A stretch of DNA of 32,000 nt. Source: Nitratidesulfovibrio vulgaris str. Hildenborough (GTDB lineage: Bacteria; Desulfobacterota; Desulfovibrionia; Desulfovibrionales; Desulfovibrionaceae). Of the stretch, positions 1-11,325 are shown piece after piece. The stretch spans positions 30,001-62,000 of the forward strand of contig NC_005863.1 of NCBI RefSeq assembly GCF_000195755.1, written 5' to 3'. Positions within the stretch are counted from its first letter, which is position 1. The number at the start of each line of letters is the position of its first letter. Both the position numbers and the translations under genes were made by a program. A model generated the notes under the pieces. The model worked only from the letters and a program-made list of their open reading frames with translations, was not told where the DNA came from and did no database searches.

Positions 1-1241
1 CATCTTGCCCGCCCGGTCATGCATTCCGTGATGGCCGACGTCGGTCGAACGGCGCGCGGGCGTGCGCCCCTGCCACGGGCGGCTGCTCTGCGGGAGCATT
101 CCGGCGTGGATGGTGGCGGGCAGGTGTTCGGCGAAGAGCATGTCGCCATCGCCAGCCACGGCGAGGGTGCAGTCGATGACGTTGACCAGTTCACGCACGT
201 TACCGGGCCACGGATGGGCGAGAAGCCTCGCCCTGAACTCCGCCGACATCTGCCAGACCTTGCCGCCGTTGGATTCGGCCCGCGACTGGAGCAGGTGTTC
301 GGCTATCTCGATGATGTCCAGACCGCGTTCGCGCAACGGCGGCAGCAGCACGCGCATGGTGCTGATGCGGTACAGCAGGTCGTCGCGGAACGTGCCCTCG
401 CGCACCATCTCCTGAAGGTCCTTGTTGGTGGCCGCCACCAGCCTGAAGTCGCTCGACTCTTCACTGCCGCCACCCACCGGGCGATAGCGCCTCTCCTGCA
501 ACACGCGCAGGAACTTCTTCTGGAGCGACATGGGCAGTTCGCTGACCTCATCGAGGAAGAGCGTGCCGCCGTCAGCCTGCCTGATGAGGCCCACCCGCGA
601 TTTGGCCGCCCCGGTGAACGCCCCCTGCGAGTAGCCGAAGAGCAGGCTCTCCACGAGGTGTTCGGGCAGCGAGGCGCAGTCCACGGTGATGAGCGGGCCG
701 CCCCGGCGCTGGCTCATGCGGTGGATGGCGCGGGCGAAGAGTTCCTTGCCCGTGCCCGTCTCGCCTTGCAGCAGCACGTTCACGTCGGCATTGGACGAGC
801 GGGCGATGGTCTCGAACTGGGCACGCAACGCGGCGGACTGCCGAAGATGCCGAAGTCGCGCAAGTCCGGCCCTTCGGCCCCGTTGCCGCCGAAGGAGGGC
901 AGCCGCTCGAGCAGCGTCGTGATGGCGCGCGGGGCCTTGCCCTTGGGCATGTAGTTGAGTGCGCCGCTCAGCAGGGCCGCCTTGCCACGCTCGGGGTTGT
1001 ACCGTTCGGCCACGACGACCACCTGCGGGGCCGCCTGTGTGGAGCGCAGCCTCGGGATGCCTTCGAGCGCGTTGTCCATGCCCTCTTCAAGGACGACAAG
1101 CTGGCACGACGACGCGCGGCAATGCCTGATGCCGTCCTCAAGCGATGAGACGACCTTGAGGCTATGCCCGCCATCGGCGAACAGGCGCGAAAGATGCATG
1201 TACAGATCAGGCTGGTGCCCGATGAGCAGTACGTTGGCCAT
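1..1241 (-). pseudogene. sigma-54-dependent response-regulator-type activator (NtrC/AtoC/PrsR-like enhancer-binding protein); reading frame broken near nt 836-842; C-terminal HTH lies beyond the window start
   Basis: ATG 1241 follows an AAGGAA RBS and opens a CheY-like receiver (MANVLLIGHQ...NYMPKG) that runs into a stop at 780. A different minus-strand frame, open from about 838 to nt 1, reads SAALRAQFETIARSSNADVNVLLQGETGTGKELFARAIH...GYSQGAFTGAAK...TLFLDEVSEL...WPGNVRELVNVI. These are the Walker A, GAFTGA loop, Walker B and sensor regions of sigma-54 AAA+ activators. The frames abut at GIFGS/SAAL, as if one nucleotide were missing. This frame is absent from the ORF track because it has no stop inside the window. 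Confidence 0.7.
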
Positions 1242-1586
1242 GAAGCGTTCCTTTGCGTCACTCTCCATGTCAGGCGATGAAGGTGTGCGTTGGCGCGGAA
1301 CAGATTTGTGGGATAGTATAGTCATGGACTATGCAGCATATCCTATTAGAATGTTGATGCAGATAGTTTTATTGTTTTAATGCTATGGAATCATTGCGCA
1401 ATAGGTTAGTTTATTTTTAGTGGGCAGCCTGAAGATACATTATTTATATTCAAGTGGATTATATGAACGTATGCATGTCGTCGATCTGCGTTCTCATGAT
1501 GCGAATGTTGTATTGAAAATGCAGTCTATATAAGGTGAATACGTGTGAGCACAGCTTGTAGGGTGACACTGCAAATGGGGGTTGTT

Positions 1587-1997
1587 ATGCTTCAAGGAAT
1601 AATGTCAGGACGTATATCTTCTCGCAGTTCTAAGGCGCAGGACCGGAGGGACGCGCACCGTATCGAACTGATGAGCCCCTTCATTGTCTCTGCGACGTTC
1701 GACTCTGCGCATAGCCATCTGTGTCTTGCCCGCAACGTAGGCGTCGGTGGCCTGTTGCTGGAGTTCCAGACCGAAAGCGAGTTGTCCGGTGTCTCCGATG
1801 GATTCCGTTGCGTGCTCACGGATATGATGCCGGAAGGCTATCATACTATGCAGGATGTCCATTGTTCCGTGGAATGGCTGTACCGCAAGTTCGTCGGTGT
1901 CGCATTCAGCAGACCTTTCTTCATGAACCATGATGCTCTTCTTGAATGGATGAAAAGGGTACGCATGTCCTACAGGCTTGTGGAGAATGCAGACTAG
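1587..1997 (+). CDS. single-domain PilZ protein (putative c-di-GMP receptor), motif 2 degenerate
   Basis: Lies within ORF 1545..1997. RRDAHR (RxxxR) is followed at PilZ spacing by NVGVGG (D/NxSxxG with Ser->Gly). The C-terminal strand VGVAFSRPF resembles the other two PilZ ORFs here. ATG 1587 is preceded by GGGGG. The start is uncertain (GTG 1545, ATG 1575, 1587 or 1602). Confidence 0.6.
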   Translation: MLQGIMSGRISSRSSKAQDRRDAHRIELMSPFIVSATFDSAHSHLCLARNVGVGGLLLEFQTESELSGVSDGFRCVLTDMMPEGYHTMQDVHCSVEWLYRKFVGVAFSRPFFMNHDALLEWMKRVRMSYRLVENAD

Positions 1998-2056
1998 GGC
2001 ATCGCTCGGCGGTGCATACCCTGTATTGAACGCCATGAGTCATAGACAAACGAGGC

Positions 2057-2107
2057 GGAACATGAAGGCGTCTTCGCACGGCCTTCATGTTCCGTCTTGT
2101 TGTTGTG
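2057..2107. terminator. intrinsic terminator hairpin between convergent PilZ genes (probably bidirectional)
   Basis: Perfect 13-bp stem GGAACATGAAGGC / GCCTTCATGTTCC (2057-2069 / 2081-2093) with an 11-nt loop, followed by GTCTTGTTGTTGTG on the plus strand. On the minus strand the hairpin is followed by GCCTCGTTTGTCTATG. Confidence 0.6.
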
Positions 2108-2117
2108 ACGCAGAGCG

Positions 2118-2477
2118 TCAATAGTCTTGCGGATAGTATCCCTGCTGCTTGTAGTCGCCTTGCTGGTAGTAGTTCTTCATGTCCTCGTAGCTATGCAGTA
2201 AAGGGCCGGAGAACGATACGCCAACCTCCTTGCCGTAGCTCCACACTACTGAATAGTAGTGGTCGTGCAGAAAAGCAGGCTTGTAGTATTCTTCCTTGAC
2301 CTTGCCGTAGCTGCCGTAGCGCATGTCAGGGTCGTAGTCGCCTTGCAGTTGCAGACGCGCCCCACCCTGACTGATGTCCAGAAGCCTTGCGTAGTACTCT
2401 TCGCCGTTTATCTGGACGCTGCAATCATAGGCATAACCCTTCAGGTCAAGCCTCTGGTAGTTTCTGCGTTCTTGCAT
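2118..2477 (-). CDS. single-domain PilZ protein (c-di-GMP receptor), extremely tyrosine-rich with a YYQQGDYKQQGYYPQDY tail
   Basis: ATG 2477 is preceded by GGAGG. Canonical PilZ motifs RRNYQR (RxxxR) and DISQGG (DxSxxG) are present at the correct spacing. The upstream 107 codons of the 226-aa track ORF (2118..2798) have no RBS and a junk-like composition. 119 aa, 20 of them Tyr (hand count). Confidence 0.8.
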   Translation of the reverse strand: MQERRNYQRLDLKGYAYDCSVQINGEEYYARLLDISQGGARLQLQGDYDPDMRYGSYGKVKEEYYKPAFLHDHYYSVVWSYGKEVGVSFSGPLLHSYEDMKNYYQQGDYKQQGYYPQDY

Positions 2478-2760
2478 GGCTGTACCTCCAGCGTTGGTTG
2501 CGGTGCGCATCTGCCCACGGTCGCAGGCTTGCCGCGTCAAGGGCGTGCCTCGTTGCACGCAAGGGGAGGATGCAACTACCGTGCACGGCGCGCTTGCCGT
2601 GCCGGATGCGGTGCATTCCATAGAAAGTGTTTCATTTCGCATGGTTGTGAAGGCTGTGGGGGCGTGCTCGCTGAAGGATGCATAACTATCTGTTTTGCTA
2701 TCAGAAAGTCGATGCGAGGCGTTGTATCGGCGAATGGCAAGGCCTGTGACCTGCCGGAAG

Positions 2761-2797
2761 TGTTGCCTTATCCGACAACCTGTTGCGTTTTCCGACA
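2761..2797 (+). promoter_or_regulatory. two direct copies (20-bp period) of the 17-bp element TGTTGC(C/G)TT(A/T)TCCGACA; candidate enhancer-binding-protein site pair
   Basis: 2761-2777 is TGTTGCCTTATCCGACA and 2781-2797 is TGTTGCGTTTTCCGACA. Each differs at one position from the copy at 6809-6825. They lie in the non-coding spacer between the PilZ gene (start 2477) and the sigma-54 promoter at 3255. Confidence 0.45.
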
Positions 2798-3254
2798 TCG
2801 CCAGACGCCATCAGGCTATGCTGCGCCATGCCACGCCTGACCGGCGCCTGTCCGACGCCTGTCCCGTCATGGGCCCTTGCCGGACTCGTAAGGGGCCCAT
2901 GGCAGACCCGACTCCGTGCCCGCTTCATGCCGATGGCGCGCGGCGTTTCGCCCCGCCGCACGTCGTGCATCTGCATGATGCCACCCGCGTTTACCGCCAC
3001 CCTCAACGGTCTTGCCGACGCCACGCCACGTCTCGTGTGGGCTACCTGCGTCCCTATGCACGTGTCGCGGGCATTCGTCCCTCGCACGTCTGCGGGCGAT
3101 GGCTATCGCACGGACATGGTGAGGCCGTGCGGCGGGTCGCGTCGGGGTGCGCGCCTGCCGCGCACGGTTGCACCCCGTACTTGTAAAGGACGCAATCGTG
3201 GATGTTTCAGGGCTTTTTCCCTGAACTGCCGTAGTTATTGAAGCTTTTATAATA

Positions 3255-3270
3255 TGGAGTGCTACTTGCA
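3255..3270 (+). promoter_or_regulatory. sigma-54 (-24/-12) promoter for the PEP-CTERM gene 3321..4022
   Basis: TGGAGTGCTACTTGCA has GG and GC separated by exactly 10 nt, as in the consensus TGGCAC-N5-TTGCW. It ends 51 nt upstream of ATG 3321. An inverted repeat GTGCGCG-N5-CGCGCAC at 3147-3165 lies about 100 nt upstream. Confidence 0.65.
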
Positions 3271-3320
3271 AAAAATGCGTGAATAAACGCATACCAGTTC
3301 CGTCACTTCAGGAGGTTCTT

Positions 3321-4022
3321 ATGCGAGTGGCACGTTTGGCAGCGGCTTTGGCTCTGGTTCTGGCATTGGCATCCATCGGCAACGCGGCGACGATGGAGAT
3401 CTTCGTGCGTCCGGAAGGGGACGCCGTGGGGGGGCAGGAACGCTATGGATACGGTTCCCCCTGGTATCAACTCGACCGTGATGCCACGGCGAACCCCAAC
3501 GCGGTCTATCACTGGTATTCTGATGGGAGCGGCGCGGCGCGGTGGACGTTCCTCCAGTTCGACCTCTCGGACCTTGCCGGCCTGGCTGACGCGGTGACCG
3601 GTGCGACGTTCAACTTCAATCTGCTGCCCGACGGCTGGGGAGAAGGCACACGCGGCAACCTCAATCACCTTTCCAATGCAGCCACGGCGAACGGACAGGC
3701 GACCCAGGGGCTTGGCGGCGACCAGCCTGTGGGCAGCGTGACGTCGGCCACGATCCTTGGCTGGAACCATTTCGACGTGACAGAGTACATCAAGGCCGAC
3801 CTCGCGGCGGGGTTCTCATGGTCGGTGTTCTCGTTCAATCAGGTGGGCTATGCGGGGATGTTCTTCAGCAGCGGCGAGACCGAAGAGCGCTCGTACCTGC
3901 AGGTCACCTACAACGGCGGCACCGTCGACCCCAACCTGCCCACGCCCGAACCTTCTTCGGTGGTGCTGATGCTGCTTGGCGCGGCGGGTCTTCTCGCCAT
4001 GCGTCGCAAGGGCGTCATGTAG
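3321..4022 (+). CDS. PEP-CTERM sorting-domain protein with a DNRLRE/CBM96-like N-terminal domain
   Basis: ATG 3321 follows GGAGG. Signal peptide MRVARLAAALALVLALASIGNA. C-terminus PTPEPSSVVLMLLGAAGLLAMRRKGVM has the PEP motif, a TM helix and a basic cluster. The core ARWTFLQFDLSDLAGL..VTGATFNFNL resembles DNRLRE-type domains (from memory, not searched). Confidence 0.9.
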   Translation: MRVARLAAALALVLALASIGNAATMEIFVRPEGDAVGGQERYGYGSPWYQLDRDATANPNAVYHWYSDGSGAARWTFLQFDLSDLAGLADAVTGATFNFNLLPDGWGEGTRGNLNHLSNAATANGQATQGLGGDQPVGSVTSATILGWNHFDVTEYIKADLAAGFSWSVFSFNQVGYAGMFFSSGETEERSYLQVTYNGGTVDPNLPTPEPSSVVLMLLGAAGLLAMRRKGVM

Positions 4023-4070
4023 CACGAGGCGTTGCCTCCATCGCATCCTACATCGTCTGACGGGGAAACA

Positions 4071-4106
4071 GGGGCGGTACACGCAGGTGTGCCGCCCCTT
4101 CCTGTC
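4071..4106 (+). terminator. stem-loop downstream of the PEP-CTERM gene (weak U-tract)
   Basis: GGGGCGGTACAC-GCAG-GTGTGCCGCCCC (4071-4098) forms a 12-bp stem with one G:U pair, followed by TTCCTGTC. It lies 49 nt after stop 4022. Confidence 0.5.
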
Positions 4107-4289
4107 GCTGCCGTGCGGCAGTGAGCGGCTTTGGCGGAGGGTTCGCCCGCTTCGGCAGGGCAGTGTGCACCGTCGGGCCGAACTTGCACACGCAGGCTCG
4201 TCGCCCCTTCCTGTGGCTGCATGCAGCCAGTGGGCGGTGTGCGCGGAGGTTCGCCCGCTTCGGCAGGGGGCAGTGTGCATCGTCGGGCC
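4079..4289. repeat. two tandem copies of a ~109-110-bp non-coding unit
   Basis: Unit A (4079-4179) and unit B (4188-4289) both run from ACACGCAGG to CGTCGGGCC. They share the blocks CGCCCCTTCCTGT(C/G)GCTGC and GGAGG(G)TTCGCCCGCTTCGGCAGGG(GG)CAGTGTGCA(C/T)CGTCGGGCC. Each unit has an internal palindrome at about the equivalent place but with a different sequence: CTGCCGTGCGGCAG at 4108-4121 and GGCTGCATGCAGCC at 4215-4228. Confidence 0.75.
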
Positions 4290-4644
4290 ACGTCCGGCAC
4301 ACTTCGTGTTCCGCCTTCTCCTCCGCTTCCGTGCAGGCAGCCAGCGAAGACCGTGGGCCGGTGCGATGCGGGGGCGCGCTGCACTCGCGCCCACTGTGGA
4401 CGGCCCTCTGGATGTCTCCCCCGTCTGTCGGGAGCGAGAGGTGGCGCGTCGTGCCGGGCCCTCTCGCCACAAGCTGCGCATGTCGGGCGGCAGATGCGTC
4501 GCGTGCCCCGTGTGGTGTGTCGGCCCGGGTTCGGCCCCTGTGCGGCCCCTGTTCGACCTGAAGGCGGCCATGCGGGCGGCATCCCGGTTGTGGGCGCAGG
4601 CGTCGTTCCACCCCATAGCCACTCCCTCGGTGTGCCTCCGTGCC

Positions 4645-4687
4645 CCGCACACGAAGAGGCCGACCTCCACGTGGTGAAGGCCGGCCT
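4645..4687 (-). terminator. stem-loop downstream of the minus-strand PEP-CTERM gene 4717..5583
   Basis: The minus strand reads AGGCCGGCCTTCAC-CAC-GTGGAGGTCGGCCT, a 14-bp stem including two G:U pairs (plus-strand 4657-4687), followed by CTTCGTGTG. It starts 30 nt after the stop codon at 4717-4719. Confidence 0.5.
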
Positions 4688-4716
4688 GTTGTATCGTCAG
4701 GAACGAAGAGACAGGA

Positions 4717-5583
4717 CTAGGCGGTGCGCCGTGCGCGCCGCATCATCATGCCCAGTCCGCCAAGACCCATCAGCATCAGCACTGCCGACGCCGGTTCGGG
4801 GGTGGGCAGGGCGGTGATGGAGAGCAGGGTCTGGTGGGTCGTGGTGACGCCCTCGCTGGTCAGCCAGCCCACGGCATCGGCCGGGAGGCCAAGCAGGGTG
4901 CGGTAGGCCAGCGGAATGGGCGAGAACGACTTGGTGAAGTCCATCACGTAGTCGATGCCGTAGAAGTGGAAGGTCTCCTGCGTGACTTCGGGGTTCATGA
5001 GCACGAACACGTCCTGCTGTGTGCTGCCGGTGTTCGGGGTCTCGAAGAACTTGAAGTCCAGCGTGGTGGAGAACACGGGCAGCGACGTCGCCCCCGGAAG
5101 CTGCGGGATGAGCTGCAGGATGGCGCGTGCCGTGCCACTTTGCAGGGTGATGCTGTCGCCGGCAATGGCCTTGTTGCTGTGAGACAGCACAAGTCCGTTC
5201 ACGGCTGCGCCACCCGTGATCAGGGTACCGCCCACAGTGGGGGCGATGGAGATGGAACTGGTGGTGGCGCCGTTGTGGAAGACGTAGCCACTGCGGTTCG
5301 AGTATGTGTAGTCGCCCCACCGGAGGGTCGAGAAGCCGGGGGTGGTGACGGGGGCGGGCAGCATGACCCCGCCGTCGAAGAGGTAGGTGAGGCTCTTGCT
5401 GCCGATACCGGTGATGCCGTTGTTGGGGTCACCGGGGACGTTGGTGTCGTTGCGCGAGTTGGTCCACTCAACGAAGGCCCCGTCCACAGTGTATGTCCAT
5501 GAGGGGACGACCGCCGCCGATGCCGCCGTCTGCAAGAGCAGCGGGAAGAGCAGCGTGAGTGCGATGAGTGCGAGGCGTTTCAT
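4717..5583 (-). CDS. PEP-CTERM sorting-domain protein, paralog A (possibly the THxN-type PEP-CTERM family)
   Basis: ATG 5583 follows AGGAG. Signal peptide MKRLALIALTLLFPLLLQTAASA. C-terminus LPTPEPASAVLMLMGLGGLGMMMRRARRTA. Alignable along its full length with 5708..6568 (LPVFSTxLDFxFFETPN, DVFVLxNPEVTxETFHFYGxDYV). An HxN motif is present (LSHSN). Confidence 0.9.
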   Translation of the reverse strand: MKRLALIALTLLFPLLLQTAASAAVVPSWTYTVDGAFVEWTNSRNDTNVPGDPNNGITGIGSKSLTYLFDGGVMLPAPVTTPGFSTLRWGDYTYSNRSGYVFHNGATTSSISIAPTVGGTLITGGAAVNGLVLSHSNKAIAGDSITLQSGTARAILQLIPQLPGATSLPVFSTTLDFKFFETPNTGSTQQDVFVLMNPEVTQETFHFYGIDYVMDFTKSFSPIPLAYRTLLGLPADAVGWLTSEGVTTTHQTLLSITALPTPEPASAVLMLMGLGGLGMMMRRARRTA

Positions 5584-5610
5584 GACGAGTCTCCTGTGTC
5601 TTGTAGCTGC

Positions 5611-5640
5611 TTGCAGGAGCCTTGGTGAAGGCTCCTGCAA
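5611..5640 (-). promoter_or_regulatory. perfect 11-bp-stem hairpin between the tandem PEP-CTERM paralogs (attenuator, partial terminator or processing site)
   Basis: TTGCAGGAGCC-TTGGTGAA-GGCTCCTGCAA. No U-tract follows on the minus strand. No sigma-54 promoter was found between the hairpin and ATG 5583. Confidence 0.5.
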
Positions 5641-5663
5641 GTGTGTGGTCGTATTCGGGGCGG

Positions 5664-5680
5664 TGTAAGGTTCTCCGACA
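5664..5680 (+). promoter_or_regulatory. degenerate copy of the 17-bp TGTnnn-N5-CCGACA element
   Basis: TGTAAGGTTCTCCGACA. Its extension TTCTCCGACAGG (5671-5682) nearly matches the 12-mer TTTTCCGACAGG at 6816-6827 and 11052-11063. It lies in the spacer between the two PEP-CTERM paralogs. Confidence 0.35.
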
Positions 5681-5707
5681 GGGGTCGCTGCCGGGGGGGG
5701 CGGTGCG

Positions 5708-6568
5708 TTATGCCTGTGACCGGCGGCGCAGTCCGAAGAGGCCGAGCAGTCCGAGGCCCATCAGGATGATGGAGGTCGGTTCGGGGGTGGGCAGGGCGCG
5801 GATGCTGATCAGCGTATCGAAGGCGTTGTAGGCGTTCTCGGAGGTGATCCAGCCGACGGAACCGACGGGCAGGTTCAGCAGGGCGCGGTAGGTTTCGGGG
5901 ATGAGGCCGAACGAGCCGCCGAAGCTGAACACGTAGTCGACGCCGTAGAAGTGGAAGGTCTCTTCGGTCACTTCGGGGTTCAGCAGTACGAACACGTCGC
6001 TCTCGGTGTTCACGTTGCCGTTGGGGGTCTCGAAGAACAGGAAGTCGAGCTTGGTCGAGAAGACGGGCAGCGGCGGGTTGCCGGAGGGGGCGAGCGTCAG
6101 CACCGAGCGCACGACGCCGGACTTAAGCTGGATGGAGCCGCTGAGGATGGGCTGGTTGTAGTGGTACAGTTCCATGCCAAGCGACGTGGGGCCGTCGGTG
6201 ATCATGGTGCCACTGCGGGCGTTGATGCCGATGGAGCTGAGGTTGGCGCCGGGAATCTGGCTGTATACGGGGCCGGGGCCGCTCCATACGTAGTCGCCCC
6301 ACGCGATATGGCGATAACCCTTGGCCGACGTGCCGGGAGGAACCGGAACACCGCCGTCGAGGTTGTAGAACAGTTCTTCAGGCTCGAAGCCGGTGATGCC
6401 CTGGGCAGGCGTGTCTAACGTGCCGCTTGTGCCCACGGTGGTCTTCCAGCTGACGAAGATGCCGTCAACGGTGTAGTCCCATGCGGGGATGGGGGCTGCC
6501 AGTGCGTTGACCACCATCAGGGCGGTCAGGACCACGGTACCGAGAAGGGAAGAGAGCAGACGCTTCAT
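5708..6568 (-). CDS. PEP-CTERM sorting-domain protein, paralog B
   Basis: ATG 6568 follows AGGAGAAAAACC. Signal peptide MKRLLSSLLGTVVLTALMVVNALA. C-terminus LPTPEPTSIILMGLGLLGLFGLRRRSQA. HxN motif LYHYN. Confidence 0.9.
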   Translation of the reverse strand: MKRLLSSLLGTVVLTALMVVNALAAPIPAWDYTVDGIFVSWKTTVGTSGTLDTPAQGITGFEPEELFYNLDGGVPVPPGTSAKGYRHIAWGDYVWSGPGPVYSQIPGANLSSIGINARSGTMITDGPTSLGMELYHYNQPILSGSIQLKSGVVRSVLTLAPSGNPPLPVFSTKLDFLFFETPNGNVNTESDVFVLLNPEVTEETFHFYGVDYVFSFGGSFGLIPETYRALLNLPVGSVGWITSENAYNAFDTLISIRALPTPEPTSIILMGLGLLGLFGLRRRSQA

Positions 6569-6626
6569 GGTTTTTCTCCTCATTTCATGAGGTTAAAAAT
6601 TGCGTGAGCAAAGTTGCATGGTATTA

Positions 6627-6642
6627 AGCAATGACTGTTCCA
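6627..6642 (-). promoter_or_regulatory. sigma-54 (-24/-12) promoter for PEP-CTERM paralog B
   Basis: The minus strand reads TGGAACAGTCATTGCT, with GG and GC separated by exactly 10 nt. It ends 59 nt upstream of ATG 6568. An AT-rich tract (6644-6700) lies between the promoter and the upstream 17-bp elements, which would suit DNA bending. Confidence 0.65.
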
Positions 6643-6719
6643 ACAGTGCTTTTAATATATATTCAAGTGTGTTGGATGATGTTTTGAGCCTTGATACCCC
6701 TCTCGGCACAGGCTGGCGT

Positions 6720-6736
6720 TGTCAACCTATCCGACA
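6720..6736 (+). promoter_or_regulatory. 17-bp TGTnnn-N5-CCGACA element, proximal site upstream of the 6627-6642 promoter
   Basis: TGTCAACCTATCCGACA, about 80-110 nt upstream of the -24 element on the minus strand. Confidence 0.4.
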
Positions 6737-6808
6737 GATTCGGGGGGCGGCGCGGGTGACCGGGGCGAAAGCGGCGCGGGCCTTCCATTCGCGCTGATGA
6801 AGGGGGGG

Positions 6809-6825
6809 TGTTGCCTTTTCCGACA
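6809..6825 (+). promoter_or_regulatory. 17-bp TGTnnn-N5-CCGACA element, distal site upstream of the 6627-6642 promoter
   Basis: TGTTGCCTTTTCCGACA matches the copies at 2761 and 2781 at 16 of 17 positions. The 12-mer TTTTCCGACAGG is identical to 11052-11063. Confidence 0.5.
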
Positions 6826-7253
6826 GGGTGCCGGAGAGCGTGCACGGGGACGCAGGAGGGGCCGCGGGTCTGGACACCACGTGAGAGGTGGGCGTCAGGT
6901 GAGAGGCAGGCTGAAGAAGGCGGGCGAAAGTGAAGGGGGGGGCGATGTGCCCCCCCGTGTCATTGCATGCGGCGTCTCCCGCGGCCATTCCCGTGGCGCC
7001 TCGCCTCGTGGCGTCCTGCGCCTTCCTGCGCCCTCCTGTGCAGTCCGGCGTTGTTTGGCACTGTCGGGGGCGTCCGGGGCCGACCTCGTTCCCGGTTGTC
7101 CGGGGCCTCTCCGCCTGACCGGGGCTTCTCGGCTGCCCCGTACTGCCCCGGTGTCCGCCTTGGTCGGGCTGTGGGGCCGTCCTGCGACGTCTTCGGCACA
7201 TCCGCCTCATGCACCGCCTTCGAGGCCATCCGCCGTCACGCGCCTTCTCGCCC

Positions 7254-10223
7254 TCACTCGGCAGGCAGCAGGAAGTCCGACAGCGGACGACGGAACGTGC
7301 CATGCCGGATGGGTGCGGCGACACCGGCACGGAACATCATGACGGGCAGTCGTCCCTTGGGGTGGGGCAGCACCTGTTCGAGAAGCGTCCACGCCTCTTC
7401 CAGCAGGCGCTGATGTGCGGTGTCCAGCGTCTGCGGGTCGCCCATGGCGAGGCGCAGGTGCAGCAGGGGCAGGGCCGCCAGCGGTTGCATGGCATAGCCC
7501 ATGTGTTCGAGGGCGCACCACGCCCGTTGCCACGCCATGCCCGCGCGGGCGATGTCCGTCTCCGTCTCGCCGTTGGCCAGCAGCAGCCCGATGCCGCCGC
7601 TTCGCAGCACGCCCATCGCCCCGTGCAGGGGCATGAGGCGCCCGAGGCCGAGGGCGTTGGCGATGCTCATGTTGCGCCACGGCCTCACGGCACGCAGGTA
7701 CAGTTCACCGGCGAGTCCCGCTTCGAGGTTCGCCAGCGGCAGTCCGTCGCCGTATGGCCCGTTCCCGGCGTGGCTGTGATGCCCTGCCTGCCCGGTGTGC
7801 CCCTGTTGCCCGACCTCTCCCTGTTGCTCGGCCTGCCCGTCGAAGCGGATGAAGCGCATGAGGTGTTCATGCATGTCGCGCCGTTCGACGCGCACCCTGT
7901 CGGCGAGGTAGACGGCCCGCGCAAGGGTCTTGCGCTGCGCCGCGTCCGTCGCCCACAGGAGGGTGGCGTCCTGTTCCTCGCTGACGAGGTGCTCGATGCG
8001 CTCGCACACCTCCACGGGCAGGGGGCGCGCGGCGTACATGCGGCGGTTGGTGTGCCTGCGCCACAGGGCGGCGGTCATGATCTCGTGCGAGGGCACGCCC
8101 AGCGGCGTGCAGTGCAGCGAGGCCACACGGTCGGGCTTCGTGGCGTCGGGAAAGAGCGAGAGCGTGGCATCGAGTCCCGCGCTGCCCGAGGCGTAGACGG
8201 CGTTCTGCACCGCGGCCCCGCAGGCCAGCAGCGAGGCCACATGGCGGTAGTCGAAGAACGAGCCGTCGGCCTGCCTGTCGAGATGGATGTGCAGCCCCGT
8301 GGCATGGGGGACGAAGCGCCACGGCTGCACGTTGTCGCCGGAGGGTGCCTGCATGGCGGCGCGGGCCACGTAGTGCAGGGTCTCGAGCGGGATGTCCTGC
8401 CGCAGTGCCACCACGTCGGGTTCTGGCGGGGGCGGCGTGCCGGTGCGCGGCGCACCCATGAAGAACCGGCGGGCGATGGCGAGCTTCAGCCGTTGCAGCG
8501 GCGAGCGCAGTCCCTTGCGGAGCCTGCCCCGCACATGACGGCCCGTGAGCGGGTCGAACTGCCTGAAGTACGGCACGGGGCGTATGCCCCGGCGGTGCAG
8601 CAGGATGCGCACGGCTTCGGTGGCGGCCATGCCCGCACAGAGATGGCAGGCGATGTCCAGCGACGGCCCCCGCCTGTCGTGCAGGCTGACGAAGCGCCTG
8701 TCCATGTAGCCGAGGTGCGCCGGGCGCGGGGCCAGCCCCATGCCGAAGCGCAGGTAGCCCTCCATGGGGGGCGTGTCGTCGTCGATGCCGAAGTAGCTGT
8801 CGAAGTTCATGCCCCCCGGCATGAAGACGAGCAGGGCGCACGAATAGCCGAGCGGCCCGGCGGTTATGACCGGAATGCCCAGTTCGAGCGCGCGGTTGAA
8901 GAGCCTGCGGCGGATGTCGAGGGCGAAGAAGTCGATGCCGTCCACCAGCAGGTCGACATCCTTGAGGAAGGCGTCGATGGTCTCGGCGGCGACGCCCTCG
9001 GGGAAGGAGCGGATGTCGAGGAACGGGTTCACGCTGAGGGCGCGTTCGGTCATGACGTCGAGCTTGCCGCGCCCGAAGCTGGCGATGCTGGCCCCGTACT
9101 GCCGGTTGAGGTTCACCGGCGAATAGGCGTCGAAGTCGGCGAGGTTGAAGTTGCCGATGCCCGTGCGCGCCAGCGTCATCAGATGGATGCCTCCCACGCC
9201 GCCAAGCCCCGCGATGGCGACCCGCGAGCGCAAGAGTCTGCGTTGTCCCGCGTAGTCCACGAGGCCGAGGTTGCGGCTGAAGGCGATGTCGGTATAGGCG
9301 TCGCGCGTCTCGAGTTTGAGCATGTCCAGCGGTACGCCGCCGGGGGTCTCGGGGTGCACCGGGTTGGTCGAGAAGTGGTTGAACACCGCGCGGTGGTAGA
9401 TGGTCTCGATGTGGTCGCGCTGGGGTTCGGCCAGATGGTCGAGCAGTTCGGGGCGCTGCTGCAACAGATAATAGGCGGTGTACGGTTCCAGTGGCCTGTC
9501 GCGGCGCACGGGGTTCTCGGAGGTCTCGGTCTCGTCGCTGTTCATGCGGGCGAAGAAGGCGAAGAGGTTGGTCTCGAAGTCCTCCTCGTCGCCGTACTTC
9601 TCCTGCAACTCGTCCATGGCCTCGTGCAGGTCGATGCGCAGGGCCACCGCCGGGGCGTCCACCGTGTCGTAGTGGCGCACCTCGCCGAAGGGTTTGAAAA
9701 GGAAGATGTCGGTGTAGAACTTCACATGCTTCGGGTTCACGGTGACGAGGATGTCGTCCACCTCCGACATCATGGAGTACTGGAACATGGCCTTGGCGAG
9801 AAAGACCATGAGGTTCGTCCACCGGCGGCTGTACTGCGTGGCAAGCGCGCCCACCTCCACCACGTTGCGCCCCTGGGCGCGCAGGGCGTCCACCTCGGGC
9901 TTGTAGAGGGTGTCCATGGGCAGGCCGAACAGCCCGGAGTCGGGGATGTGGGTCAGCGTGCACAGCACGTCGTGGTAGCTTTTGAAGATGAAGACCGAGG
10001 TGGCGGGCAGAATGCTCCAGACATTGTAATACATTCTTGATGGATGCGGCTTGAGATAGCCCGAGCGGATGTACTCTTCGTACACGAGGCGGAAGGCCCG
10101 TGTATACTCGTCGGGCGTTTCCGCGATCTTGATGGCGGGCCTGTCCAGCGCCCCCAGCTTGTTCTGCAGGAGCGAGGAACGCTTGATGCGGATGGTACGG
10201 CGCTTGTCGGCGATGGCGAGCAT
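7254..10223 (-). CDS. 989-aa three-domain protein: FeeM-like N-acyl amino acid synthase (GNAT-fold) + ThiF/MoeB-type E1-like adenylyltransferase + tandem nitroreductase-like module (Rv1355c-like C-terminal two-thirds)
   Basis: ATG 10223 with GAGG upstream. aa ~30-205 (nt ~9609-10136): FRLVYEEYIRSGYL...GLFGLPMD...VVEVGALAT...ILVTVNPKHVKFY, as in FeeM/autoinducer-synthase-like acyltransferases. aa ~315-545 (nt ~8589-9281): VAIAGLGGVGGIHLMTLARTGIGNFNLADFDAYSPVNLNRQ (ThiF glycine loop and NLNRQ). aa ~605-985 (nt ~7269-8411): AMQAPSGDNVQPWRF and LWRRHTNRRMY (nitroreductase-fold signatures in two halves). A Gln/Gly/His low-complexity insert lies at aa 796-826. Confidence 0.9.
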   Translation of the reverse strand: MLAIADKRRTIRIKRSSLLQNKLGALDRPAIKIAETPDEYTRAFRLVYEEYIRSGYLKPHPSRMYYNVWSILPATSVFIFKSYHDVLCTLTHIPDSGLFGLPMDTLYKPEVDALRAQGRNVVEVGALATQYSRRWTNLMVFLAKAMFQYSMMSEVDDILVTVNPKHVKFYTDIFLFKPFGEVRHYDTVDAPAVALRIDLHEAMDELQEKYGDEEDFETNLFAFFARMNSDETETSENPVRRDRPLEPYTAYYLLQQRPELLDHLAEPQRDHIETIYHRAVFNHFSTNPVHPETPGGVPLDMLKLETRDAYTDIAFSRNLGLVDYAGQRRLLRSRVAIAGLGGVGGIHLMTLARTGIGNFNLADFDAYSPVNLNRQYGASIASFGRGKLDVMTERALSVNPFLDIRSFPEGVAAETIDAFLKDVDLLVDGIDFFALDIRRRLFNRALELGIPVITAGPLGYSCALLVFMPGGMNFDSYFGIDDDTPPMEGYLRFGMGLAPRPAHLGYMDRRFVSLHDRRGPSLDIACHLCAGMAATEAVRILLHRRGIRPVPYFRQFDPLTGRHVRGRLRKGLRSPLQRLKLAIARRFFMGAPRTGTPPPPEPDVVALRQDIPLETLHYVARAAMQAPSGDNVQPWRFVPHATGLHIHLDRQADGSFFDYRHVASLLACGAAVQNAVYASGSAGLDATLSLFPDATKPDRVASLHCTPLGVPSHEIMTAALWRRHTNRRMYAARPLPVEVCERIEHLVSEEQDATLLWATDAAQRKTLARAVYLADRVRVERRDMHEHLMRFIRFDGQAEQQGEVGQQGHTGQAGHHSHAGNGPYGDGLPLANLEAGLAGELYLRAVRPWRNMSIANALGLGRLMPLHGAMGVLRSGGIGLLLANGETETDIARAGMAWQRAWCALEHMGYAMQPLAALPLLHLRLAMGDPQTLDTAHQRLLEEAWTLLEQVLPHPKGRLPVMMFRAGVAAPIRHGTFRRPLSDFLLPAE

Positions 10224-10270
10224 GGTGACCTCGCGGAGGATGCTTCACGGTTGGGCAGCGTACCGGGTGA

Positions 10271-10286
10271 AGCCAGTTTCGTGCCA
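10271..10286 (-). promoter_or_regulatory. sigma-54 (-24/-12) promoter for the three-domain enzyme gene
   Basis: The minus strand reads TGGCACGAAACTGGCT, with GG and GC separated by exactly 10 nt. It has the same TGGCAC...TGGCT style as the prsT promoter. It ends 48 nt upstream of ATG 10223. Confidence 0.65.
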
Positions 10287-10307
10287 GCAACGTCAAGTGC
10301 GAGGTTT

Positions 10308-10336
10308 TTCGACAGTAAGGTGTCGGAATGCCGACC
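10308..10336. promoter_or_regulatory. cluster of TGTCGG/CCGACA half-sites between two divergent sigma-54 promoters
   Basis: TTCGACA (10308-10314), 6 nt, TGTCGG (10321-10326), AATG, CCGACC (10331-10336). The half-sites match the 17-bp element, but the spacings (N6 and N4) differ from the N5 seen elsewhere. Confidence 0.45.
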
Positions 10337-10377
10337 TTCGATTTCTGTAACTAGCTGTTTTTGCTCAAGACGTTTTT

Positions 10378-10393
10378 TGGCATGAATGTGGCA
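10378..10393 (+). promoter_or_regulatory. sigma-54 (-24/-12) promoter upstream of the third PilZ gene
   Basis: TGGCATGAATGTGGCA has GG and GC separated by exactly 10 nt, with a TGGCA -12 element. It ends 117 nt upstream of GTG 10510. Confidence 0.5.
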
Positions 10394-10509
10394 AGTGCTG
10401 GCTTTATGAAGCGTCTTTAAGGTTTGTTGTCTCGAGTACGACCCAAGGCACATGCGAGACCTGCATCGAATGACCTGTACGGCCACTGGACGCGGATGGA
10501 GGTGCGGAG

Positions 10510-11073
10510 GTGAAGAATGTTGCAGTCGACACACAGGCTGGTGCACGTCTTGCCGATGTAGCACAATGCCTTGAATGCCAGCCGGGACATCTCGCTTCGG
10601 GCATTCTCAATTCATTTTTCGAATGCAATGCAGTACACGGCGATGCAACGACGTCTGAAAAGCGCAGGCTTGGCAGACGGGCGACGCACATTGCAGCCGT
10701 CACCTGCGCATGTGATGGCGAGAACGAGAGCAGGTGCACACCTGCCATCATCAGTAACATCTCCCTTTGCGGTGTGCGGGCCGAGGTACCGCATTCGTCA
10801 TCCGGCTATGGTAGCATCATGCGCAAGGTCGGTGCATTCGAACTGATGTTCACGTTTCCTTCAGAAGACGAAGTGGTGACGTTCAAGTGCCGCATGAAGT
10901 ATGTGCTCGACGGCGAGCGTACGGTGCTTGGCGGGGCCTTCGTAAGTCCTGATATCGTTTCGCTTCGTGCGCTGGTGCGCTTTCTGTTGTCACCGCAGGC
11001 CCGGCCCGAGTCGTCGCAAACGCCTTGTCGGACAGGCTTACAGGTGTCGGGTTTTCCGACAGGCACGGCCTAG
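10510..11073 (+). CDS. PilZ-domain protein (putative c-di-GMP receptor) with a Cys-containing N-terminal extension
   Basis: RRLGRR (RxxxR) and NISLCG (NxSxxG) are present at PilZ spacing, with a C-terminal LGGAFVSPD strand. GTG 10510 overlaps a GGAGG. The start is uncertain and the true N-terminus could be further downstream. Confidence 0.55.
   Translation: MKNVAVDTQAGARLADVAQCLECQPGHLASGILNSFFECNAVHGDATTSEKRRLGRRATHIAAVTCACDGENESRCTPAIISNISLCGVRAEVPHSSSGYGSIMRKVGAFELMFTFPSEDEVVTFKCRMKYVLDGERTVLGGAFVSPDIVSLRALVRFLLSPQARPESSQTPCRTGLQVSGFPTGTA
11026..11061. promoter_or_regulatory. two adjacent 17-bp elements, one a perfect palindrome; candidate upstream activating sequence for the prsT-eps operon promoter
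   Basis: 11026-11042 is TGTCGGACAGGCTTACA (right half degenerate). 11045-11061 is TGTCGGGTTTTCCGACA (perfect 6-N5-6 inverted repeat). Centres are 19 nt apart. They lie about 210-245 nt upstream of the sigma-54 promoter at 11270 and overlap the 3' end of the PilZ ORF. Confidence 0.55.
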
Positions 11074-11269
11074 GGGCCGCACGAAGCCCCCCATCCGTCC
11101 TTCATGTGCCGTTCGTGTATACAACCCGTCCGTGAAATCAGGACGCCCGTCCCGTTTATCATGCGTGTCCTGATAAGCCGGACGGTTCAGGGGGGCTGCA
11201 AGACTCTAGACATTCTGTAACGTGTCTTCTTTGCACGCGTGGACGCGCCGGGGCCGAAGCCTCTGCGTG

Positions 11270-11285
11270 TGGCACGGTATTGGCT
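11270..11285 (+). promoter_or_regulatory. sigma-54 (-24/-12) promoter of the prsT-exopolysaccharide operon
   Basis: TGGCACGGTATTGGCT has a perfect TGGCAC -24 element and GG and GC separated by exactly 10 nt. It ends 41 nt upstream of GTG 11326, with RBS ACGGAGG at 11314-11320. Confidence 0.75.
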
Positions 11286-11325
11286 CTATACGGGGGAACA
11301 TCCGGCCCGAACAACGGAGGTTCCC

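Follow-up and report, generated by a model that had tools for sequence, protein, structure and literature searches.

The 32,000-nucleotide stretch of DNA analysed here (the window) is part of the megaplasmid pDV1 of Desulfovibrio (Nitratidesulfovibrio) vulgaris Hildenborough and holds its genes from DVUA0024 onward. We read the region as the regulatory and cargo-encoding flank of an XrtA (exosortase A) PEP-CTERM/exopolysaccharide (EPS) system that is organised in two sigma-54-dependent modules, a reading to which we give a probability of roughly 0.7. In the first module, DVUA0030, the pair DVUA0032-0031 and the prsT-EPS operon each have a -24/-12 promoter with one or two 17-bp boxes, and the canonical PilZ gene DVUA0029 lies beside one box pair. 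The protein that binds the boxes is the response regulator PrsR (DVUA0057), whose gene lies with that of the exosortase outside the window. In the second module, DVUA0034, the gene of a large three-domain enzyme, and the divergent gene DVUA0035 would be served by a pair of conserved sigma-54 promoters that stand back to back and have no PrsR boxes. This pair appears across the Desulfovibrionaceae together with a second enhancer-binding protein (EBP), a DevBCA-like exporter and a PEP-CTERM-associated CAAX-protease homolog, and in Hildenborough the EBP of the module is broken by a 1-nt deletion. The first module is backed by published experiments and was found again here. First described in this analysis are the reading of DVUA0034 as an oxazolone synthase, the box-free divergent promoter pair, a family of proteins that joins a ribbon-helix-helix (RHH) pattern to a PilZ domain, and the conserved set of genes travelling together. 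In sum, the region holds a known regulon and, in DVUA0034, a putative fused variant of a known enzyme pathway.

PrsR boxes and sigma-54 promoters of the published regulon

The PEP-CTERM box, its sigma-54 motif and the PrsR/PrsK/PrsT proteins have been defined before, and DVU_A0057, DVU_A0065 and DVU_A0036 were named for this plasmid at that time (Haft 2006, PMC1569441). In the 32 kb of the window, the shared 17-mer TGTCGG-N5-CCGACA has eight matches with at most two mismatches, one of them in the prsT coding sequence and the other seven between genes (starting at 2761, 2781, 5664, 6720, 6809, 11026 and 11045). These seven boxes are letter-identical to the DVUA0057 sites in Additional file 4 of Kazakov 2015 (PMC4641369) and, as intergenic 17-bp TGT-N11-ACA dyads upstream of a GG-N10-GC element, they pair with the promoters at 3253, 6626 and 11268. 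Four DVUA0057 peaks on the plasmid were reported from DNA-affinity-purification-chip (DAP-chip) experiments (Rajeev 2011, PMC3333781; coordinates in Table 1). With an offset of about 29.9 kb between the two numberings, these peaks cover three of the box clusters, and the fourth peak starts at the edge of the cluster at 11026-11061. The targets assigned to DVUA0057 in the same study were DVU_A0029 (annotated "PilZ domain"), DVU_A0030-32 and DVU_A0036. DVUA0057 passes the PrsR model TIGR02915 with 585.4 bits (cut-off 502.6). The genes xrt, epsI and prsK are present on the plasmid, and PrsR, the exosortase, EpsI and PrsK are encoded at 61.5-79.5 kb in the coordinates of strain RCH1; the window ends at ~56.6 kb in these coordinates, and the PrsR gene lies ~7 kb past the window end.

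Three of the five -24/-12 promoters in the region (3253, 6626 and 11268) are identical to entries in Additional file 6 of Kazakov 2015 (PMC4641369), and the other two are in no published list. All five GG-N10-GC sites are intergenic and each faces a gene. Because a search with the consensus TGGCAC-N5-TTGCW allowing one or two mismatches gave no enrichment compared to shuffled sequences, it was replaced by phylogenetic footprinting and a position weight matrix (PWM) built from 84 published sigma-54 promoters of D. vulgaris Hildenborough located outside the window. The PWM returned eight matches of at least 10 bits against 3.5 expected, a modest excess, and the five sites are among the seven best matches of the window (19.8, 16.2, 13.2, 11.9 and 10.4 bits). 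The case for the five promoters is carried by their position and conservation, and not by sequence excess alone. A preliminary description of this DNA had listed five promoters, a shared 17-bp element and three PEP-CTERM proteins, and all of these stand, with three of the promoters already published, seven intergenic copies of the element and all three proteins at or above the curated cut-offs.

The PEP-CTERM proteins PEP1 (DVUA0030), PEP2 (DVUA0031) and PEP3 (DVUA0032) pass these cut-offs in TIGR02595/PF07589, their hydrophobic N-termini are visible, and an exosortase is encoded on the same replicon. The paralogs PEP2 and PEP3 score 138 and 141 bits on NF038125 (cut-off 85). A sigma-54 promoter specific for PEP2 was sought in 5584-5707, and none with the right spacing was found, only a PrsR box and a hairpin. 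PEP2 is probably co-transcribed with PEP3, and DVUA0032-0031 is listed as an operon in Kazakov 2015 (PMC4641369). The hairpin (5611-5640, minus strand) lies between the PEP3 stop and the PEP2 start, just past the PrsR box, and has a perfect 11-bp stem, TTGCAGGAGCC-N8-GGCTCCTGCAA, without a T-tract; it may serve processing or stability between the two cistrons and thereby set the PEP2:PEP3 ratio.

The long spacers around these genes hold some further elements. The 695-bp spacer between the convergent PEP-CTERM genes contains two ~109-bp direct repeats that are rich in G+C hairpins (4079-4311). A sigma-54-like site after the repeats (4293-4311, plus strand, TCCGGCACACTTCGTGTTC) reaches 12.7 bits on the PWM, above the DVUA0034 promoter, and has no annotated gene downstream; it could mark a small RNA or an antisense transcript that is missing from the annotation. 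Two copies of a 25-nt AT-rich element, 80% identical, occur at 1442-1466 and 6655-6679. The latter falls in the stretch that separates the PrsR boxes from the -24 element of the PEP3 promoter, which is the expected place of a bending site of the integration host factor type, and the former lies in the unusually AT-rich spacer between the divergent EBP and PilZ1 genes, where the only sigma-70-like matches are also located. Rfam gave no match in the long spacers at gathering thresholds (whole window) and no convincing match at E <= 1 (positions 1-11400), where three matches at E = 0.4-0.7 were dismissed as chance.

A box-free divergent promoter pair in a conserved neighbourhood

As listed in Table 1, the promoters of DVUA0034 and DVUA0035 point away from each other, and the interval 10224-10509 contains no PrsR box with at most two mismatches and no DVUA0057 DAP-chip peak. 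The divergent pair is found again in the homologous loci designated L055, L054, L002 and L003, whose DVUA0034 orthologs are 72%, 65%, 52% and 51% identical. In these loci the site toward the enzyme gene reads TGGCAYGAWWCTGGCT and the partner-facing site reads TGGCACGRAAT-N-GCA, while the surrounding spacer cannot be aligned. PWM scans located the enzyme-facing site in six loci and the partner-facing site in six. Between the two promoters lies a perfect palindrome, GTCGG-AATG-CCGAC (10322-10335), which is one base shorter than the PrsR box and is not kept in the closest orthologous loci.

At least 10 loci, which come from several genera and lie on contigs of chromosomal size, preserve the neighbourhood, and a gene resembling that of PilZ3 (probably DVUA0035) adjoins the enzyme gene in eight loci. 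Recurring components of the Pfam-annotated neighbourhoods of three orthologs are the prsT-EPS operon, the PilZ3-like gene, the three-domain enzyme, one or more THxN PEP-CTERM genes, a sigma-54 EBP and a PilZ1-like gene, and the same three neighbourhoods also contain a Rce1-like/CAAX protease, a HlyD-like adaptor, an ABC ATPase and a MacB/FtsX permease. Based on this synteny and on the promoter conservation, we infer that DVUA0034/DVUA0035, an EBP of the DVUA0024/DVUA0025 type and the exporter operon would form a second sigma-54 module. One Oleidesulfovibrio locus additionally encodes a patatin, a PilZ protein and two proteins with GGDEF domains. On an Oleidesulfovibrio contig (L056, 2731-5929), a small Pfam PilZ gene adjoins the fused enzyme gene together with a GGDEF and a CBS-GGDEF gene. 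In D. mangrovi (L058, 12361-15457), a GGDEF gene, a CBS-GGDEF gene and an unannotated open reading frame of 164 amino acids adjoin a split oxzA-oxzB pair. This recurrent cyclic di-GMP (c-di-GMP) neighbourhood is not present on pDV1 within the window.

The EBP at the start of the window (DVUA0025/DVUA0024) is distributed over two reading frames, with the receiver domain at 780-1241 and the AAA+ domain in the other frame, from about 845 down past the window start. The preliminary description had proposed a sigma-54 EBP, and indeed the Sigma54_activat domain is recognised with E = 3e-65 and the GAFTGA motif is present, but the gene is not intact. Over the first 12 kb, the window is 100% identical to plasmid pDEVAL01 of N. 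vulgaris RCH1, with one base difference, a deletion at 838. On the gene strand this deletion turns GGC AGT TCC into GGCAGTCC and disrupts FGIFG-S-SAALRAQFE, and the break in the reading frame of the EBP falls between FGIFG and SAALRAQFE, exactly at the deleted base. NtrC-class regulators combine a receiver, a Sigma54_activat domain with GAFTGA and a Fis-type DNA-binding domain in one frame, and in the window this frame is broken. The RCH1 copy is intact and codes for 517 amino acids (RefSeq annotation). The single-nucleotide deletion has been described as specific to strain Hildenborough, in a study that left the DVUA0024 regulon unidentified (Kazakov 2015, PMC4641369), and it marks the window as DNA of this strain. 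On the PrsR model TIGR02915, the intact RCH1 copy reaches 270.4 bits, under the cut-off of 502.6, and the EBP of the island is not PrsR.

In RCH1, the EBP gene heads an operon that lies upstream of the window (L053, 1339-5617) and codes for an ABC exporter resembling DevC/DevA/DevB and for a protein related to CAAX proteases (TIGR03008). The latter scores 318 bits on TIGR03008 (cut-off 81). In other genera, too, this operon keeps its place beside the gene of the three-domain enzyme. The exporter genes match the DevC, DevA and DevB family models, with DevC at 152 versus 290 bits and DevA at 235 versus 296 bits, both under their cut-offs.

DVUA0034 resembles a fused acyl-oxazolone synthase

The 989-amino-acid open reading frame of the second module is DVUA0034 (PMC5646257). 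Residues 28-199 match FeeM (PF21926, E = 4.9e-44; PDB 2g0b, E = 2e-13), the ThiF domain is found with E = 6.3e-49, and residues 620-985 match the Acg family (NF047509, 3.8e-37; PDB 2ymv match), so that the domain order is acyltransferase, ThiF, flavin oxidase. Among larger families, the protein matches the Rv1355c family NF005901 with E = 1e-65, PRK14851 (ThiF plus nitroreductase) with 3.4e-220, and NF011425 (PRK14852, 'hypothetical protein') with 2396.7 bits over positions 1-989 of 989 (cut-off 1337); the PRK14852 architecture is catalogued, without a functional name. The ATP-binding motifs of the ThiF domain are intact (GLGGVGG, DFD..NLNRQ and the conserved Lys), and D431 aligns to ThiF D127, the equivalent of TrzS D217 and the Asp of the adenylation motif. 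DVUA0034 has all three domain features looked for in an OxzB/TrzS-type synthetase, namely a ThiF domain with the adenylation Asp, a C-terminal flavin oxidase and a fused FeeM N-acyltransferase. The fusion of an acyltransferase, an E1-like domain and a nitroreductase that had been noted before is thus real, with domains of the FeeM, ThiF and nitroreductase/Acg type, whereas the impression of a novel enzyme was not borne out, since it matches the characterised OxzAB/TyzACB/TrzAS pathway.

In this pathway, the OxzAB oxazolone synthetase consists of a ThiF-nitroreductase di-domain enzyme and an upstream N-acyltransferase; OxzA converts acyl-CoA into an N-acyl amino acid, and OxzB uses ATP to cyclise and oxidise this to tyrazolone or phenazolone (bioRxiv 10.1101/2020.06.11.147165). 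The same pathway is formed in Mycobacterium tuberculosis by TyzA/TyzB/TyzC, and the closest structural homologs of TyzA include FeeM (PMC10404671). It is likewise formed by TrzA/TrzS (Rv1356c/Rv1355c), where D217 is required in TrzS and O2-limited TrzS releases the saturated cyclised intermediate (PMC12856293). DVUA0034 is best read, from its sequence, as a one-polypeptide acyl-oxazolone synthase of the OxzA-OxzB/TrzA-TrzS type. Its FeeM-like domain would N-acylate an amino acid, the ThiF domain would adenylate the carboxylate of this N-acylated amino acid and close the oxazolone ring, and the flavin domain would desaturate the bond between C-alpha and C-beta, giving an acyl-oxazolone or N-acyl (dehydro)amino acid of lipophilic and electrophilic character. 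As TrzS frees the saturated intermediate under O2 limitation, an anaerobe may, by analogy, yield a saturated azlactone as the product, or a different acceptor may serve the flavin. The DevBCA-like pump encoded nearby probably exports the lipid, which probably influences the biofilm matrix. The DVUA0034 transcript was reported to be lower in rhamnolipid-dispersed D. vulgaris cells, and overproduction of the protein alters biofilm formation (PMC6170446). N-acyl amino acid synthases have also been linked to exosortase loci (Craig 2011, as cited in PMC7293339).

All three domains are found in about 22 of the 120 best protein clusters, and most of the others have the two-domain form, largely from Desulfobacterota. 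Unfused arrangements are seen as well. In D. mangrovi (L058), a FeeM gene of 295 amino acids overlaps the start of a ThiF-nitroreductase gene of 686 amino acids, beside EPS glycosyltransferases and two GGDEF genes. Desulfobacter postgatei carries two FeeM genes, a ThiF-nitroreductase gene, a MacB-type exporter and a PEP-CTERM gene together, and a planctomycete contig combines a ThiF-nitroreductase gene, an EBP gene and a FeeM-like open reading frame. A reading of the ThiF and nitroreductase pair in terms of ribosomally synthesised and post-translationally modified peptides of the azole type was rejected, as the acyltransferase is part of the fusion and no YcaO or precursor-peptide gene was seen in the Pfam-annotated neighbourhoods. 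Downstream of DVUA0034, a G+C-rich terminator-like hairpin (6936-6956, minus strand) lies ~300 nt past the stop codon, leaving a non-coding tail of ~300 nt (6957-7253).

The three PilZ and PilZ-like proteins

Three stand-alone PilZ genes had been proposed for this region, and they differ in how far they conform to the family. PilZ2 (DVUA0029) is a clear case and ends in a Tyr/Gln-rich low-complexity tail, YYQQGDYKQQGYYPQDY, encoded by 2118-2180. PilZ1 keeps RRxxxR, which is invariant in six orthologs, but the Ser of its second motif is replaced by Gly. The window protein has no Pfam match and one ortholog reaches 20.9 bits (PF07238 cut-off 22.5). Comparison of PilZ1 with the PilZ3 family by hhalign gave a probability of 76% (E = 2e-5). 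The PilZ1 gene is divergent from the EBP gene, an arrangement that is kept in L054 and L055. The RefSeq start of the RCH1 homolog (MSPF...) omits RRxxxR (window 1587-1680); given the invariance of this motif, translation probably begins at the ATG at 1587 (MLQGIM...).

PilZ3 is supported at the level of its family. The protein alone matches Pfam PilZ with E = 0.016-0.03 and 15-16 bits (PF07238 cut-off 22.5). Word-index searches gave four close relatives each for PilZ3 and PilZ1, and an exhaustive HMMER search gave a PilZ3 family of 33 representatives, 29 of which match Pfam PilZ. The most conserved columns of the family are R52, R56, S85 and G88, corresponding to RxxxR and [DN]xSxxG. The combination of these motifs in a PilZ beta-barrel, which marks c-di-GMP receptors, is found in PilZ2 and, at the family level, in PilZ3. 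An AlphaFold (AF2) model of PilZ3 (pLDDT 84) matches the c-di-GMP-bound PilZ domains of MapZ, BcsA and Alg44, and the fold matches include MrkH. The N-terminal 45 residues of the family follow a ribbon-helix-helix pattern, a short strand followed by two helices, which the model places at 8-20 and 25-44. The family consensus is roughly ICFRT..L...L..IA....RSLSS.IE.IL., and several members have weak Pfam matches to RHH_1/3/4/5/7, Arc and NikA-like families. Distant members adjoin CBS-GGDEF genes or EPS clusters. Sequence and model together suggest that DVUA0035 may couple c-di-GMP to DNA binding at this locus. A full-text literature search for ribbon-helix-helix together with PilZ returned CdbA/CdbS and AmrZ, and among the titles and abstracts listed there was no description of a fused RHH-PilZ protein.

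Table 1. Features of the window (EBP, enhancer-binding protein; PWM scores in bits)
Feature	Position	Strand	Remarks
Sigma-54 enhancer-binding response regulator DVUA0025/DVUA0024	1..1241	-	Start codon at 1241; extends past window start
Single-base deletion compared to RCH1	838..839		GGAACT to GGACT on the plus strand; sole difference in 12 kb
PilZ1, divergent PilZ-like, 136 aa	1587..1997	+	RRxxxR and N-[VI]-G-x-G-G motifs
PilZ2 (DVUA0029), canonical stand-alone PilZ	2118..2477	-	RRNYQR ... DISQGG; E = 7e-13; 49 bits, both motifs
Tandem PrsR boxes TGTTGCCTTATCCGACA and TGTTGCGTTTTCCGACA	2761..2797		Under DVUA0057 DAP-chip peak 32608-32837
Published sigma-54 promoter of DVUA0030, TATGGAGTGCTACTTGCAA	3253..3271	+	PWM 16.2
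PEP1 (DVUA0030)	3321..4022	+	Signal peptide, CBM96/DNRLRE-like domain, PEP-CTERM anchor
PEP2 (DVUA0031)	4717..5583	-	THxN-family PEP-CTERM, NF038125
PrsR box TGTCGGAGAACCTTACA (minus strand)	5664..5680		Under DAP-chip peak 35556-35785
PEP3 (DVUA0032)	5708..6568	-	THxN-family PEP-CTERM, NF038125; PEP2 paralog
Published sigma-54 promoter of DVUA0032-0031, GTTGGAACAGTCATTGCTT	6626..6644	-	PWM 19.8, best match of the window
Two PrsR boxes, 6720-6736 and 6809-6825	6720..6825		Under DAP-chip peak 36644-36717
DVUA0034, 989 aa	7254..10223	-	FeeM, ThiF and nitroreductase/Acg-type FMN oxidoreductase domains
Sigma-54-type promoter of DVUA0034, GCTGGCACGAAACTGGCTT	10270..10288	-	Kept upstream of orthologs in L001, L002, L003, L054, L055
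Sigma-54-type promoter of the RHH-PilZ gene (DVUA0035), TTTGGCATGAATGTGGCAA	10376..10394	+	Kept in L002, L003, L054, L055, L056
PilZ3 (probably DVUA0035), 187 aa	10510..11073	+	RHH-like N-terminus and PilZ barrel 57-144; RxxxR, N-I-S-L-C-G
Two PrsR boxes, TGTCGGACAGGCTTACA and perfect palindrome TGTCGGGTTTTCCGACA	11026..11061		Adjoin low edge of DAP-chip peak 40961-41384
Published sigma-54 promoter of prsT-EPS operon DVUA0036-0041, TGTGGCACGGTATTGGCTC	11268..11286	+	PWM and published list
PrsT (DVUA0036)	11326..13986	+	First gene of the XrtA-type EPS operon occupying the remaining window

Alternative explanations

That the whole island forms one regulon under its own sigma-54 activator and c-di-GMP, as the preliminary description held, is improbable in our view. 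It is true that all five promoters are of the -24/-12 type, that the genes are syntenic in relatives, and that upstream of DVUA0034 there are a block of degenerate, box-like sequence, TGTCGAAAAACCTCGCA, and a near-box palindrome of 16 bp. However, the boxes are bound by DVUA0057 and not by the local EBP, which fails the PrsR model and is frameshifted, so that the role of activator proposed for the island EBP falls to a protein encoded beyond the window end. In addition, 10224-10509 has neither a box nor a DAP-chip peak. As a consequence, one regulon is not shown, and two sigma-54 modules fit better: co-regulation holds for the PEP-CTERM genes and the prsT-EPS operon, and DVUA0034 and DVUA0035 probably belong to another module. 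The expected synteny in relatives carrying XrtA loci is indeed found in the Desulfovibrionaceae for the three-domain enzyme, the PilZ partner, the EBP and the THxN PEP-CTERM genes. The impression that the combination was undescribed does not hold for its core, which was already published (Haft 2006, Rajeev 2011, Kazakov 2015).

The co-location could also be functionally meaningless, a mosaic of plasmid accessory genes beside an EPS operon with chance GG-N10-GC sites in G+C-rich DNA. The high G+C content makes such sites common (16 two-mismatch consensus matches versus 17.5 expected), and the region contains low-GC patches, a pseudogene and repeats. Yet the neighbourhood recurs in at least 10 loci of several genera on chromosomal-size contigs, the promoter 16-mers are conserved inside otherwise diverged spacers, and the DAP-chip peaks are experimental, which makes a mosaic very improbable. 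The least probable of the alternatives considered is that DVUA0034 acts on the C-terminus of a protein or peptide, for example cleaved PEP-CTERM cargo, by E1-like activation and flavin oxidation as in the microcin C and azole-peptide pathways. ThiF-family enzymes usually adenylate protein or peptide C-termini, MccB and PaaA are among the weak PDB matches of DVUA0034, and its gene sits among PEP-CTERM cargo genes. Against this, the fused FeeM-type acyltransferase provides a small-molecule carboxylate as substrate, the same three activities make up the characterised OxzAB/TyzACB/TrzAS small-molecule pathway, and the Pfam-annotated neighbourhoods lack YcaO and precursor-peptide genes.

The two-module reading with an acyl-oxazolone synthase has its own difficulties. 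The promoters of the second module score low on the PWM (11.9 and 10.4 bits, where the 10th percentile of known sites is 12.4) and read TGGC, not TTGC, at -12. When an enhancer site common to the DVUA0034 and DVUA0035 promoters was sought, only a short block in the three closest loci and a non-conserved palindrome came up, none of them convincing. The proposed cognate EBP is a pseudogene in Hildenborough, yet DVUA0034 is reported to be expressed. The RHH assignment draws on weak Pfam matches in about a third of the family and on the two-helix model. As to the enzyme, DVUA0034 reaches 222 bits against the cut-off of 476 of the Rv1355c family, and the 23 NCBIfam families that it matches at E <= 0.01 do not include TIGR03694 (exosortase-associated N-acyl amino acid synthase). 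The desaturases that have been characterised work with O2, whereas D. vulgaris lives anaerobically, and the proposed export by the DevBCA-like pump comes from gene neighbourhood only.

Implications

The module-1 regulon is textbook for this model sulfate reducer, and finding it again adds little. The enzyme offers more, since a gene annotated as "ThiF family adenylyltransferase" or "hypothetical" (PRK14852), which already has a biofilm phenotype in D. vulgaris, gains a testable chemical function. The three-domain fusion in DVUA0034 is Rosetta-stone evidence that the synthase, cyclase and desaturase work as one pathway, and the hundreds of ThiF-nitroreductase homologs in strict anaerobes raise the question of how O2-dependent desaturation is replaced. 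Next to exosortase loci, the enzyme is closely paired with an RHH-PilZ protein and with a second sigma-54 activator, which suggests a concrete link of c-di-GMP and acyl-amino-acid lipids to PEP-CTERM sorting, a link noted since 2011. The RHH-PilZ family is a small lead. A far-reaching and, as it stands, unlikely extension would unite DVUA0034 and its RHH-PilZ partner with the second EBP, the DevBCA-like pump and the CAAX-protease homolog in a conserved c-di-GMP/sigma-54-gated lipid branch of the exosortase system. This branch would make an electrophilic acyl-oxazolone (azlactone) without O2, and in the envelope the reactive lipid would act as donor or acceptor to lipidate or cross-link either PEP-CTERM cargo or amino-sugar EPS. 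If true, this would provide the long-missing chemical partner of exosortase sorting, and RHH-PilZ proteins would be a new class of c-di-GMP-responsive DNA-binding protein.

Comparison with known systems

The pDV1 boxes, sigma-54 promoters, long PEP-CTERM spacers and targets agree with the PrsR/PrsK/PrsT PEP-CTERM box regulon, down to identical site sequences. The differences are that the PrsR gene lies outside the region and that DVUA0034 and DVUA0035 are boxless and not part of the published regulon. The genes downstream of the EBP recall the DevBCA glycolipid exporter of cyanobacterial heterocysts, as they match the DevC/DevA/DevB models and adjoin DVUA0034 orthologs; unlike DevBCA, the pDV1 exporter has DevC- and DevA-family scores under the cut-offs, and its genes lie just outside the window. 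DVUA0035 resembles MrkH of Klebsiella in having a PilZ barrel with intact c-di-GMP motifs and a putative DNA-binding module. In Myxococcus, the c-di-GMP-binding RHH protein CdbA has the PilZ protein CdbS as its partner, whereas DVUA0035 seems to join the RHH-like and PilZ parts in one small polypeptide.

With the exosortase-linked N-acyl amino acid synthases, DVUA0034 shares a FeeM-type synthase next to exosortase/EPS genes, and stieleriacine clusters have ThiF and nitroreductase partner genes as well. In DVUA0034, however, these partners are fused instead of separate, and its N-terminal domain lacks a TIGR03694 match at E <= 0.01. The closest parallels are OxzA-OxzB of Pseudoalteromonas rubra (de Rond, Asay and Moore), TyzACB and TrzA-TrzS, with which DVUA0034 has in common a FeeM-like N-acyltransferase, a ThiF-like ATP-dependent cyclase and a flavin desaturase of the nitroreductase superfamily. 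OxzB and TrzS also have the same fusion order, ThiF followed by flavin domain, and the conserved adenylation Asp. Unlike these systems, DVUA0034 combines all three activities in a single chain, falls below the Rv1355c-family cut-off, and is found in an anaerobic sulfate reducer behind a sigma-54 promoter in an exosortase/EPS neighbourhood, while the OxzB set was described as restricted to alpha-, beta- and gammaproteobacteria (bioRxiv 10.1101/2020.06.11.147165). Judged by its sequence, DVUA0034 appears to be a known pathway in a new, fused form, placed in an anaerobic, exosortase-linked and sigma-54-driven setting where it was not expected.

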